From contig JAYURB010000093.1 in assembly GCA_043756425.1 (NCBI GenBank), positions 1-31,131 of the forward strand: a stretch of 31,131 nt of DNA. Direction: 5' to 3'. Under the pieces are notes generated by a model. That model searched no databases, had not been told where the DNA came from, and saw only the letters and a list, made by a program, of their open reading frames with translations. Both the position numbers and the translations under genes were made by a program. The DNA comes from Bacteroidota bacterium (GTDB taxonomy: Bacteria; Bacteroidota; Bacteroidia; AKYH767-A; 2013-40CM-41-45). Positions 1,716-12,361 of the stretch are shown piece after piece. Position 1 is the stretch's first letter. Each line of letters starts with the position of its first letter.

Positions 1716-4700
1716 TACTGCGCCAACGTAAATCGTATACTAATCCCAGCATTCGTATTTGAGTTGGGATAGCTGGTAGACACAAATGGTTCGTTAGCAG
1801 AATAATTGTAAAAAGCCTGAACGTTAAAGCGATCGTTGATTGGATAATCTGCCGAAATCTTGAAAGCAAGGGTTTTGGTTCCGCCGCTTGGCTGATTGGT
1901 TCCTTCAACAACTTTTCGAAGAATTGTTGTATTGTCCCGCAGGTTAACATCTGCTTTTACTGTCAGATCGTTGCTGAGTTTTTTCTTGCCTCCTGTTCGG
2001 AATGGTAAGGTGACTTTTTTGAATTTATAGCCAAGGCCAATGGTATATTCTATACCGCGGACTTCTGTAACCTGACTGTTGGAATATGCCAGAGAAATTG
2101 TACGGTCACGTTTTATTTCAAAGCGTGTCTGCAGACTGTTTTTCCACATCATATCGATTCCAATAAGTGGAGCAAGTTGTTCTGAAATAGTAATTTGCTG
2201 CAAGTCGTATTGCGGAATAAAATTGCCAATGGTATCCGTGTTATTGGGCATATTATTATTTATATCCTTTGTATAAAACAAATTCTGTGTAAATGAATTG
2301 ATGCTGTATATGGAACGATAACCGTGTGAAATTGTAAGTGATTGAAGGAACGATGAGAACAGTTTAAGCTTGGAAAGCCCATCATAGGTAACTCTCCAGT
2401 TTGGCATTGGAATAGTTGGGAATAGTTTTAAGATAGATCTGGAAGGTGTCCTGCCCGAATATGCTGAAAGAAATGCATAGGTTAATACTTCTTTTTGCGA
2501 AAGTCCGTAACCATTGGTATTAGGCTGTCTTGGTACATTTGGATTTTCAGCATCAAGTATTCCTGAAAACGTCTGACGGTTTTTTACAAATTGCTCAAAG
2601 TTTTTATTTGAATAATCCTCAGCGTCTTTTACGAAGTGAGTATTCCATGTCAGATACGATATTGAAAAGTTACCGGATTCCGTTACACTCGAACTTCTAA
2701 AGGTTCCATCCGAATTTTGATATTTATAGTATTCGTTGTGATTGAGTGTGTAATTTCTGCTGCCATTCAATTCTATCTTCAGACTTTTTATAGGTTCAAT
2801 AGTAACACGAACGGTCAGGTTTTGAAGATAGGTTCGGGTAAAATATGAATTCAGGGTTGTATCTTTGGTAAGCCACTTATACTTTACGGCATCCGGTCGA
2901 ATATCACGTTGACTACCGAATACAAATCCATATCCCGGTGCAGCAGGACTACCCGGAAAATTATTATCGTTACCAAGGAAATCTCCTATACTATTTGGTT
3001 TGGGAAAGAAACCGGGAAGGAGAGTTCCATTCGTTTCAGAATAATTTACGGAAGCAGTCTTAACCATCATTAATGTTTTTGCCATTCCTCTAAAGATTGG
3101 TTCCAGAATGCTTGGTTTAGGAGTTAATGTATCCGGTTTTGTTTTAAGTGAATCTGAAGGTAATTTAACTTTTGGTTTTGGTTTGCTTTTTTGAGGCTGG
3201 CCGGCATTTATTTTCTTCAGGAAAGGAATTTTATTGTACAAGGTCGCAAAGGTTAAACTTGCATTGTATTGCATGGTTTGAGAATTCTGAATGGTATTTC
3301 CCCAGGAATTTGAATCGGTAATTTGGTTTAGAAGTGTATCGAAAACAAGTGGCGCTGACTTCCAGTCAAAATCTCCTGTATAACTTACACTTCCTGTTAT
3401 CCAGTCTGTGAGTGGGAATTTCGTGAATGGAACTGCATAGGTAGCTCTTGATGTCTGATGGAAATGATCCAGACGACCTAGGTTTTTCAAGTTACGTGTT
3501 ATTGAATCTCTTTCTTCCTTGGTGTCTATTCGTCCGGGTGGTTCGTCAATTATGGCATATGCATCGGCATTGTAATCAATCTTTAATGCTTTTACTAAGT
3601 CCCAGTTCAAGCCGTAATTGCGGCGCATAAAATATGTTTTCTCATATGTAGGACTAAGATTAAATGACAATCCGGTATTGTTGCGCAAAAACGTTTCAGA
3701 ATATGTTCTGTCCAGACTGGCCCGGAAATTTAATGCCGATGGTATGGGATTAAAATTAATGTCCTTGATAAGTTTAAGCCACTTTGAATTTAATACTTTG
3801 GATTTATTTTTTTCAAAAGGTGCAATAGGTTTTGATCCGCTATTGTAATTATAGCCTACGATTCCCTGATAGGTTTTAGCAAAAGAACGTTCGATATTAT
3901 AGTTGCGCTGATAGTTTTCAGTATAAGCATACGTGAAATTTAGATTCTCCACATCGTAAATGTGAGACTTTGAATTACCTCCGGTTTTTGCTTTCCTGAC
4001 ATTGGTGAAATTCAAACTTTTTCTTTGTGTATAATCTTTAACACTTCTACTAATGTTTTCCTTAACCTCTTTATTGGGTGCTGCATCTAAAGCGCGATCC
4101 AGAAGAACATCGGGGTCTAACGGATTGTACTGCGGGTTGATAGCAGCTTCAGAATAGCCAAAGTACATTGGTATTTTTATTCCTGATTTTTCGGGCAAGA
4201 ATTTTCCCAATTCAATGCTGGTCGAAAAATCGTATGAAAGTTTATTTTCTCGAGAACGCTCACTAACTTTTTTCTCAATACTTCCCCATCCTGCACTGCT
4301 TTGATTTCCCACAAGAGACATGGTTCCAAGGTCAGCGAGTTTACTGGTAATTCGGGCTGTTGATGCAATACCGCCGTTTTCATTAAAGTCGGAAAGTCTT
4401 AATTCATTAAACCAGACTTCTCCACAAAGTTTAGCACCCGAACCACTGCCATCTTTCGGATTACGAATTCCCAGCATAATTGAACGAACGTTGCTTAGGT
4501 TTGGAGTACCTTTTACGGTAATGGTTCGTCCGCCAATAATTTTTTTAAATGGTGTAAGCAACGTTACATTTGGATTTAATTGCATTTCGCTGTTCCGTGC
4601 AAGCTTGACATCAATCAGGTCGTCGAGTGTAATTTCCATATTGTTGCTCTCCGGCCAGATTTCAGTTGGAGCAGTTGTGGGAGGAACCGTTACTGTTAAA

Positions 4701-9051: not shown

Positions 9052-9630
9052 TTATAGAGCTTTTAGAGCATTCTTAATTAAATCTTCAACATTTACTGAG
9101 GGACTGGTTTTGAGTATATTATCTAGTGTGCGATCGACTGTGTTTCGGGCAAATCCGAGGGTAACAAGTGCTGCTATAGCTTCTTCTTTAACTCTTAGGT
9201 TGGAGGTCAAAGAAATGGGCGATTTTCCATCTTTTTTCAACTTTCCTTTCAATTCCAGAATAACACGTAAGGCAGTTTTTTCTCCTATTCCTTTTATGGC
9301 CTGCAGCTTTTTTGCTTCTTCCAGAATGATGCAATTTTCAATTTCAGCTACATTCATAGACGAAAGCATCATCCTTGCAGTGTTGCAACCAATACCGGAA
9401 ACCGTAATCAGCATCTTAAATAATCTTCTTTCATCTTCATCGATAAAGCCGTACAACGTATGAGCATCCTCAGTTATTTGAAGGTGGGTCAAAATACGAA
9501 TGTGTTCACCCTCTGAAATTTTTGAAAAAGTGTTCAAAGAAATATTTACGTGATAACCAACACCGCTGCATTCAACAATTATGAATGTTGGATTTTTTTC
9601 AACGAGTTTTCCGCTTAAGTGGTTGAGCAT
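9052..9630 (-). CDS. ruvA: Holliday junction branch migration protein RuvA
   Basis: IIVECSGVGYHVNIS, HTLYGF, HhH motifs LITVSGIGCNTA and IKGIGEKTALRVILELKGK, EEAIAALVTLGF, and VEDLIKNALKAL. Confidence 0.97.
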   Translation of the reverse strand: MLNHLSGKLVEKNPTFIIVECSGVGYHVNISLNTFSKISEGEHIRILTHLQITEDAHTLYGFIDEDERRLFKMLITVSGIGCNTARMMLSSMNVAEIENCIILEEAKKLQAIKGIGEKTALRVILELKGKLKKDGKSPISLTSNLRVKEEAIAALVTLGFARNTVDRTLDNILKTSPSVNVEDLIKNALKAL

Positions 9631-9717: not shown

Positions 9718-9729
9718 GTTATTTAGTTA

Positions 9730-9788
9730 ATCCGATAGCTATCGGATAAATAGCTATCCGATAGCTATCGATCCGATAGATATCGGAT
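9730..9788. repeat. Tandem cluster of CCGATAGCTATCGG-type palindromes (REP-like)
   Basis: Perfect 18-bp palindrome ATCCGATAGCTATCGGAT (9730-9747), then ATAGCTAT, CCGATAGCTATCG (9758-9770) and one-mismatch ATCCGATAGATATCGGAT (9771-9788). Confidence 0.85.
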
Positions 9789-9802
9789 TAAAACTCCTCC
9801 GA

Positions 9803-10047
9803 TGCTGGGCGAAGTCTTAAGCGCGAAGTAAGAATATAAATAATAGCTCTGCAATTAACTCGAGCGCGTGACTTCGTCCACTACGGAGCGCGGGATTTAA
9901 TTATGTACATTTTCCCGAGCTAGTGATAATAGACGAATAAAATTCGTTAAAACTTTAAATGCCGCGTCGTGGACGAAGTCACGCGCTCAATCTGATAGTA
10001 GTACAATTAATAAAGATTCCGTTTCGCGCTTAAGACTTCGCCCAGCA
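9803..10047. repeat. 245-bp nested inverted-repeat element (REP/REPIN-like, MITE-like or structured RNA)
   Basis: Perfect 25-bp IR (9803-9827 / 10023-10047) encloses a perfect 20-bp IR (9862-9881 / 9969-9988). Both intervening spacers are exactly 34 bp. All four arms share the core TGGRCGAAGTC. The class of element is inferred. Confidence 0.85.
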
Positions 10048-10054
10048 GAGCTAG

Positions 10055-10085
10055 TGCGATAGCTACCGATCCGATAGCTATCGCA
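10055..10085. repeat. Palindromic hairpin of the same GATAGCTATC family just after the maeB stop (possible terminator or REP)
   Basis: TGCGATAGCTA (10055-10065) pairs with TAGCTATCGCA (10075-10085); no strong U tract. Confidence 0.7.
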
Positions 10086-10090
10086 TTACC

Positions 10091-12361
10091 CTAACTATTC
10101 TTCCTCGACTGCGCATCCACCACAGCAATGGTAACCATGTTAACAATTTCACGAACGGAACTGCCCAGTTGTAAAACGTGAACGGGTTTTCGCATGCCTA
10201 ACAATACCGGTCCGATGGCTTCTGCTGCGCCCATTTCCTGAATGAGTTTATAGGCAATGTTGCCCGATTCCAGGTTCGGAAAAATGAGGGTGTTGGCACC
10301 TTCATTGGCGAATTCACAAAAAGGAAAATTATCTGAAAGCAGAGAAGGGTTGAGTGCAAAATTTGCCTGCATTTCACCGTCGACCATCATGCCGGGATAT
10401 TTTTGATGAAGAATTGCTACAGCATCTCTTACCTTTTGCGCTTCCGGATCATTTGATGAACCGAAATTGGAATATGAAAGCAAAGCAATACGCGGACGAA
10501 CATTAAACTGCTGAACGGCCCAGGCAGTAAGCACTGTAATTTCGGCCAAATCATTTGCAGAAGGATTTACATTTACGGTTGTATCGGCAAAAAAGATAGG
10601 TCCTTTTTTGGTTATCATAATATACATTCCGGCGACTTTTTTAACGTCATCCTGCGTGCCGATAATCTGTAAAGCCGGACGAATGGTATCGCTGTATTTT
10701 CTTGTAAGACCGGAAATCATGGCATCGGCTTCACCAATATCAACCATCATGGCGCCGTAATAATTACGCTCGTTCATGATTTTTTTTGCTTCATAAAGAG
10801 TGAAGCCGCGTCGTTTTCTTTTTTTGAAAAACAGTTCACCGAAGAACAAACGTTTTTCTTCTTCCTGTCTTGGATCAATAATGGGAGTATCTCCTAAATC
10901 GAGATTGTTTTCCTGAATGAGACCGGCAATTTTTTCTTTATTACCCAATAATATAGGGCGGGCAATACCTTCGTCGCGCACGATTTGCGCGGCTTTAAGG
11001 ATTTTATAATTATCGGCTTCCGTAAAGACAATGCGTTGAGGATTTTGTTTAGCCTTGCTTGTAACGACACGAATTAACTTATTGTCGAGTCCGAGACGTT
11101 TACGAAGTTCATCAACATAATTTGGCCAATTGTTGATTTTAACTTGCGCCACACCTGAATCAATTGCAGCTTTGGCAACAGCAGGGGCAACGGTGCTTAT
11201 TAAACGCGGATCAAGAGGTTTCGGAATAATATAATCGTAGCCGAATACAATGTTCTTGGCATTGTAAGCAATGTTAACGATTTCGGGAACAGGTTCTTTT
11301 GCAAGATCAGCAATGGCGCGCACGGCAGCCAGTTTCATGGCTTCATTAATCTGTGTTGCTCTTACATCTAGGGCGCCTCTGAAAATAAAAGGAAAACCAA
11401 GGACGTTGTTAACCTGGTTAGGGAAATCGGAACGGCCGGTTGCTATGATAATATCCTCGCGGACACTTCTGGCATCGTTGTAAGAGATTTCAGGATCAGG
11501 ATTTGCAAGTGCAAAAACAATAGCATTTTTAGCCATGGATCTAACCATGTCTTTTGAAACAACATTCCCTTTGGAAAGTCCGAGCAGAACGTCGGCTCCT
11601 TTCAAAGCTTCTTCCAGTGTATGAACTTTTTTTCGGGTAGCAAAAAATATTTTATTCTCATCCAGATCGGTGCGGTCAACATGCAGAACGCCCGTGCTGT
11701 CGACCATGACGATGTTTTCTTTTTTAGCCCCGAGAGAAATATAAAGTTTAGCACAGGAAATTGCTGAAGCACCTGCACCACTAACGACAATTAAAACTTT
11801 TTCAATTTTTTTTCCGGTAAGCTCGAGAGCATTTAGCAAAGCCGCTCCTGAAATGATTGCAGTTCCATGCTGATCGTCGTGCATGATAGGAATGCGTAAT
11901 TCTTCTTTCAGTCTTCTTTCAATTTCAAAACATTCAGGAGCTTTAATATCTTCCAGATTAATGCCTCCAAAAGTTGGAGAAATGGCTTTAACAGTCTGAA
12001 CAAATTTTTCTACATCTGTTTCTGCGATTTCAATATCAAAGACATCGATATCTGCAAAAATTTTAAACAGAAGACCTTTCCCTTCCATTACCGGTTTGGA
12101 TGCTTCGGGACCAATGTTGCCAAGCCCCAATACGGCTGTGCCATTGGATATTACTGCAACCAGGTTTCCTTTTGCAGTATATTTATAAACATCATCGGGG
12201 TTATCTGCAATTGCCAGGCACGGTTCGGCCACACCCGGCGAGTAAGCCAATGAAAGGTCGCGTTGAGAGCTGTATGGTTTCGATGGAATTACTTCAATCT
12301 TGCCCGGTCTACCTTGAGAATGATAGTCTAAGGCTTCCTGATTTTTCTTTTCTTTTTTCAT
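10091..12361 (-). CDS. maeB: NADP-dependent malic enzyme with C-terminal phosphotransacetylase-like domain
   Basis: [54 protein letters not shown]; PTA-like C-terminus [29 protein letters not shown]; 756 aa. Confidence 0.97.

Follow-up and report, generated by a model that had tools for sequence, protein, structure and literature searches.

REP and REPIN sequences, together with their REP-associated tyrosine transposases (RAYTs), are well described in Proteobacteria (PMC3116915, PMC3337134). Among RAYTs, TnpA-REP subclass 2.6 (group 5 of Bertels) is found mostly in Bacteroidetes and comprises enzymes of about 179 amino acids with the motifs NH[LIV]H, WQ and YIH[QN]NP, at a copy number of about 1.8 per genome (Table 1 of that study), according to the available text of Quentin, Siguier, Chandler and Fichant (2018, PMC6006769). 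That portion of the text describes the partner repeats of the Bacteroidota RAYT subclasses only as "atypical secondary structures", and it contains no description of a two-module architecture or of filled and empty sites. Group 5 genes have moderately frequent flanking 16-mers (Bertels et al. 2017).

Here we analyze a 245-bp element located between ruvA and a malic enzyme gene in a metagenome-assembled genome from the Bacteroidota (the source genome, G000; 86% complete, 677 contigs, each at least 2 kb). The stretch of DNA analyzed, 31,131 nucleotides in length, is referred to as the window, and positions given without a contig name refer to it. We conclude that the element is very probably a non-autonomous, REPIN-like miniature mobile element that represents the gene-less form of a RAYT unit. 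It shows the features by which REPINs are recognized, namely inverted units that fold into a long hairpin, multiple extragenic copies and a RAYT flanked by the inverted repeat. Like the REPIN and REP-BIME systems and their RAYTs in Pseudomonas fluorescens SBW25 and E. coli (PMC3116915, PMC3337134), it is non-coding, lies outside genes and occurs in tens of dispersed copies, and its predicted cognate RAYT is a single-copy gene with inverted copies of these sequences on both sides. As with REPINs, some copies occupy orthologous sites common to sister species, while some insertions are lineage specific. Unlike REPINs, which measure roughly 60–110 bp, the element is 245 bp long, and each half is an 80-nt module of outer and inner arms with a 34-nt spacer, so that four copies of the core are present rather than two. 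A canonical GTAG foot at the base of a short hairpin is likewise not evident here, and the host belongs to an uncultured Bacteroidota lineage with a modest number of copies.

The preliminary description of this locus, made from the sequence alone, had offered a REPIN/BIME-like element as one of three candidates, next to an invertible segment and a conformationally switching RNA. It is the first of these that the dispersed copies, the empty site in a sister species and the RAYT between the same modules in five relatives bear out. The same description held that many copies next to a RAYT would make the structure an ordinary REP cluster, which is the situation we found.

The geometry reported earlier (perfect inverted repeats of 25 and 20 nt, two 34-nt spacers and an 87-nt centre) was exact on recheck (Table 1). 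A perfect 25-nt inverted repeat arising by chance is excluded, as roughly 1e7 nearby position pairs multiplied by 4^-25 give an expectation of about 1e-8 in 31 kb. Family alignment places the conserved start of the element at 9804, one position inside the annotated outer arm, and a conserved A-rich tail (10048–10051) directly follows the right outer arm. Additional pairing extends into the centre as proposed (9889–9893 with 9962–9966, and 9895–9900 with 9955–9960), in a register 5 nt off that of the arms. The core common to outer (TGGGCGAAGTC) and inner (TGGACGAAGTC) arms was likewise confirmed, at 11 nt. Outer arms start with CTGG and inner arms with GTGG, the latter preceded by CGTAG or CGTCG, and the hairpin departs from the short canonical REP form.

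Table 1. Coordinates of the element, its parts and its neighbours within the window
Feature	Position	Strand	Remarks
ruvA, downstream neighbour	9052..9630	-	Pfam RuvA_N, HHH_5, RuvA_C
Left flank: short dispersed palindrome copies and linker	9727..9802	.	14-nt palindrome core CCGATAGCTATCGG
Segment filled here and missing from the orthologous spacer of the sister species (G011)	9746..10084	.	339 bp, global alignment
Outer arm A, left terminal inverted repeat	9803..9827	+	perfect 25-nt inverted repeat with 10023-10047
Spacer 1, loop of module 1	9828..9861	+	34 nt, AT-rich
Inner arm B, left copy, pointing to the centre	9862..9881	-	20/20 complementary to 9969-9988
Centre	9882..9968	.	87 nt, occupies the place of the RAYT gene
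Inner arm B, right copy	9969..9988	+	
Spacer 2, loop of module 2	9989..10022	+	34 nt
Outer arm A, right terminal inverted repeat	10023..10047	-	
Right flank: linker and more short-palindrome copies	10048..10088	.	
MaeB-type malic enzyme with PTA domain, upstream neighbour	10091..12361	-	Pfam malic, Malic_M, PTA_PTB

Two alternative folds had been suggested for the element, one long rod and a pair of hairpins that each join an outer to an inner arm. The rod held up, with the whole element as DNA folding at -71.1 kcal/mol (z = -11.7 versus shuffles). The two-hairpin fold is not of comparable strength, as single-module hairpins reach only -9 to -13 kcal/mol each, with z between -0.3 and -1.8. In the gene-less element, the long rod is therefore thermodynamically dominant and the two-hairpin fold is weak. 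In the gene-bearing unit described below, the sole near partners of the arms are the arms of their own module. We also found that the outer:inner hairpins do not each contain a G-U pair, as had been claimed. On the + strand, a G·T pair (9809/9877) occurs in module 1 and an A·C mismatch (9973/10041) in module 2; the - strand shows the opposite arrangement. The underlying difference, G in the outer and A in the inner arm, is invariant, and such a G·T/A·C asymmetry makes sense only through outer:inner pairing or through separate protein contacts.

Both the source genome and its sister species (G011) contain the element as a dispersed repeat outside genes. The source genome contains at least 11 full or partial copies with 77%–95% identity, many of them cut at contig ends, and the sister species contains at least 30, some as head-to-tail arrays. 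DNA matches in four other species of the genus were limited to single modules of about 80 nt, and a search of 21 genomes from other genera of the same order gave no match to the element. All 15 full-length copies examined were extragenic (outside long open reading frames), often 9–44 nt past a stop codon; the window copy starts 44 nt downstream of the stop codon of the malic enzyme gene. No short direct repeat indicative of a target-site duplication was present at the ends of these 15 copies, aligned with their flanks.

The 15 copies align across the whole 245 bp with a mean column identity of 85%. Their arms are nearly invariant, and the right inner arm B is identical in all 15. The 3' half of spacer 2 is invariant across copies, and spacer 1 is conserved within the subfamily of the window copy; a 275-bp subfamily has another centre and another spacer 1. 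Small indels, including small deletions, were seen in the left outer arm of five of the 15 copies, and the right module (9959–10047) was the best conserved across copies. In relation to the RAYT gene, this module is on the 3' side, the left module being 9803–9881. In sediment metagenome contigs, summed depth was 500–1900x within the element versus 18–19x in the flanks. Depth peaked over the right module, which was about twice as abundant as the left. The two ends of the element may be unequally needed. The same contigs confirmed both junctions of the filled site and contained head-to-tail arrays.

Several copies occupy orthologous sites in both species. These are found on source genome contigs C142, C437 and C428, which correspond to C34, C43 and C72, respectively, of the sister species. 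Since such sites are common to both, the family is older than the species split and has been mobile since. At one of them (G000:C428:2546–2664, and the left flank on G011:C72, L028), we note that heptamer-periodic repeats of the TAACGAA type adjoin the element copy.

The window copy, by comparison, has an empty counterpart in the sister species. The ruvA/malic enzyme spacer of that species (G011:C63) has flanks 96%–97% identical to those in the window, the element is missing, and the site contains only a single 22-bp perfect palindrome. This palindrome is unrelated to the one obtained by joining the two outer arms, so the earlier suggestion that the interior had inserted at the centre of that joined palindrome does not hold. 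The element was likewise missing from the other genomes of the genus that hold this locus, and the site was filled in a relative population of about 95% similarity from another study. The metagenome contigs included no empty-site contig, an absence that carries no weight in assembled contigs. Because the spacer of the sister species is empty, the copy at this site arrived after the species split.

The inserted block extends beyond the element, with linkers and extra copies of a short palindrome on both sides. The left (9746–9802) and right (10048–10084) parts outside the element are not present in the sister species either. In the BLAST view, the inserted segment is 321 bp long, and about 18 bp of the resident palindrome recur at each of its sides. 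Linkers similar to those around the window copy occur in a tandem array of the element in the sister species (G011:C34) and in its orthologue in the source genome (G000:C142). As the insert exceeds the element and its edges lie in short palindromes, the exact junctions are not placeable to the base. When the flanks of the sister species copies were mapped onto the source genome, the contigs of the latter stopped at the repeats, and no second filled/empty pair was resolvable.

The flanking palindromes belong to a second family of dispersed repeats. Its members are short perfect palindromes, and their 14-nt core occurs in 30 exact copies on 23 contigs of the source genome. Copies are located at 9727–9791 and 10052–10088 of the window, on contigs C25, C67, C274, C467, C513 and C647, and on others, mostly within AT-rich extended palindromes. 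On contig C26 of the sister species (L047), short palindromes at 860 and 2028 bracket another RAYT paralogue (1363–2007), which may be the partner of this family. A third family, of repeats about 140 bp long, has at least 15 copies in the source genome (G000:C281:4697–4840 and G000:C308:7399–7530 among them); one copy of the 245-bp element is cut short by such a repeat, and a second copy adjoins one. We considered a tie between this third family and the flanks of a RAYT paralogue on G000:C28, and found the two to be unrelated; it is a separate family.

A 186-aa open reading frame of the sister species (G011:C17; L041:3683–4243, - strand) sits between four arms, with the outer arms at 3550 and 4414 and the inner arms at 3613 and 4350, an arrangement that matches the 245-bp element except that a gene replaces the centre. 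It scores 87 bits against the NCBIfam model NF047646 REP_Tyr_transpos (cut-off 80) and barely exceeds the cut-off for Pfam Y1_Tnp (23.2 bits, cut-off 23). Its HUH (H-M-H), WQ and YIHNNP motifs are retained across six orthologues. The curated NCBIfam match settles the predicted identity of this gene as a REP-associated tyrosine transposase. A PDB sequence search with the RAYT gave no meaningful match.

Orthologues of this RAYT with 61%–68% identity are present in four further species of the genus (G016, G018, G019 and G015) and have the same arm flanks (partly so in G015); the same inner arm type brackets the RAYT genes in G011, G016, G018 and G019. In five related genomes, the predicted cognate RAYT thus lies between the same arms and with unchanged polarity. 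Matches to the element at the DNA level were confined to genomes whose best RAYT was at least 61% identical, plus the source genome. Within the sister species, the cognate RAYT is a single-copy gene, with one match at 100% identity and the rest at 34%–45%, except for one decayed fragment at 53%. A paralogous RAYT in G009, 60% identical, has its own arm variant of the same design, and this variant repeats the outer-G/inner-A difference beside the common core.

Comparison of the two forms is consistent with this relationship. In a global alignment with the element, the gene-bearing unit of the sister species measures 901 nt, with the RAYT at 198–758, and positions 9937–9996 of the element align with positions 785–844 of the unit at 50 of 60 identical sites. 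About 32 nt of the centre (9937–9968) are homologous to sequence directly downstream of the RAYT stop codon, at 27–60 nt. This apparent homology fits an origin from a gene-bearing unit via internal deletion. Since the RAYT lies between the same modules in relatives, we interpret the 245-bp element as a gene-less, REPIN-like derivative of the RAYT unit.

We did not find the cognate RAYT in the source genome, at 86% completeness and with contigs of at least 2 kb. The only RAYT relative there is 38% identical to the cognate gene and has an in-frame stop. A repeat-bounded RAYT unit of about 0.9 kb could drop out of such an assembly, and a true absence is also possible. This 38% identical paralogue, at G000:C28:3775–4284 (L051), has TAA as its in-frame stop. 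A 106-nt inverted repeat of its own, with 79% complementarity, lies on either side, and the whole probably represents a second RAYT unit in decay. Across the genus, genomes contain up to eight RAYT-like matches each, several with stop codons. Each RAYT paralogue may have a repeat family of its own.

Compared with the subclass descriptions in the available text of PMC6006769, the RAYT resembles subclass 2.6 in its length of 186 aa, its WQ and YIHNNP motifs and its flanks. It differs in the residues that precede the HUH histidines, which are S-T here and not N. We note that the motifs fit subclass 2.6 and also subclass 2.4 (group 4; YIxNNP), the comparison being one of motif descriptions without profiles.

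How the element moves can be proposed by analogy. The TnpA-REP enzyme of E. coli and the IS200/IS608 TnpA act in trans on folded single-stranded DNA and cut beside the arms. The RAYT could similarly act in trans and recognize the arms as folded single-stranded DNA, for example on the lagging-strand template. Either the long rod or the local hairpins of outer and inner arms might be the recognized fold, and the enzyme would cut beside the arms and move or copy the unit. The outer-G/inner-A difference, which yields G·T or A·C depending on the strand, could mark the processed strand and end. The window copy would have landed in, or recombined at, the resident short palindrome just past the malic enzyme gene, and would have carried with it linker sequence of the sort found in tandem arrays of this element. 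A more specific version, which we offer tentatively and regard as rather doubtful, is that the substrate of this RAYT clade is a two-stem module of about 80 nt, unlike the short GTAG-REP hairpin and marked for strand and end, and that resident palindromes are preferred as targets and are duplicated on insertion.

Other kinds of mobile DNA resemble the element in part. It is like IS200/IS605 elements and PATEs, their derivatives without a gene, in the Y1 HUH enzyme, in ends that are recognized there as DNA hairpins and in the lack of target duplication. Unlike here, the ends of IS200/IS605 elements are two different subterminal hairpins on one strand and not a symmetric inverted pair, their enzyme has a Y---Q motif, and they are multi-copy together with their gene. 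The bacterial MITEs known as Correia elements in Neisseria are also small, non-coding, intergenic and capable of folding into a rod, and they too have terminal inverted repeats. Correia-type MITEs make target-site duplications and derive from DDE insertion sequences, and neither was seen here. The perfect 25-nt terminal repeats, the small size and the dispersed copies would all suit a MITE whose outer arms are the ends of a DDE-type insertion sequence and that is mobilized by cut-and-paste. We nevertheless consider such an origin very improbable, as no copy has a target-site duplication and outer arms were found around one kind of gene only, the Y1/RAYT gene, in four species. In addition, all exact outer-arm matches in the genome collection of the species were loci already examined, with an arm spacing of about 245–275 or about 890 nt. 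A different question is whether the RAYT had a direct role in placing the window copy. One unit of a tandem array could have been copied to this site by homologous or template-switch recombination at short palindromes, within a family that is still RAYT associated. The inserted block is longer than the element, it ends in the 14-nt-core palindromes that are the sole content of the empty site, and its linkers are like those of the G011:C34/G000:C142 array, all of which this account would explain. We consider it unlikely, however, given that most other copies are without such flanking palindromes, that 14–22 bp of homology is short for RecA-type recombination, and that head-to-tail arrays with short linkers are also predicted by RAYT models (PMC3733652).

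The remaining alternative is that the element serves the host, either as an inverton upstream of ruvA-sprA or as a switching or terminator RNA between maeB and ruvA, and to this we give next to no credence. Its position between two co-oriented genes would suit such a role, and a - strand transcript with flanks could form a very stable rod (predicted at -179 kcal/mol over 376 nt, z = -14.8). Yet relatives are without the element at this locus, and dozens of copies lie beside unrelated genes. With those copies and no recombinase gene found adjoining the element, the earlier inverton candidate is unsupported; flipping so nearly symmetric an element would also alter little. The metagenome contigs at the element contained no inversion joint, although assembled contigs cannot prove absence. 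The switching-RNA candidate fared no better. At permissive thresholds, Rfam searches returned only chance-level miRNA and sRNA matches, mostly on the flanking palindromes; the best was to a miRNA model (33.9 bits versus a gathering score of 62) and fell on a flanking palindrome, not on the element. Covariation across the family, assessed for the rod and for the two-hairpin fold, exceeded shuffles by no measure, and the two doubly changed pairs in the centre were not significant. Because the arms hardly vary, neither fold is preferable by covariation. The modelled RNA rod is a possible incidental terminator or stabilizer, and any effect on transcription from maeB to ruvA would be a by-product of the element.

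Taken as a gene-less derivative of a RAYT unit, the element is a known kind of selfish DNA that is less studied in Bacteroidota, and not a new mechanism. Accounting for so striking a structure as ordinary selfish DNA guards against its annotation as a riboswitch, an inverton or a regulator of ruvA-sprA. Repeats of this kind break metagenome assemblies, with many copies lying at contig ends, which is useful to know when such genomes are binned. The family also offers a well-delimited case for the poorly described RAYT subclasses of Bacteroidota, in that a gene-less element, a gene-bearing unit, an empty site and copies at orthologous sites are all available. If the two-stem module is indeed the substrate and resident palindromes are the preferred targets, this RAYT clade would have a distinct substrate architecture and target choice, and the locus would be among the few clean filled/empty pairs for a Bacteroidota RAYT repeat.
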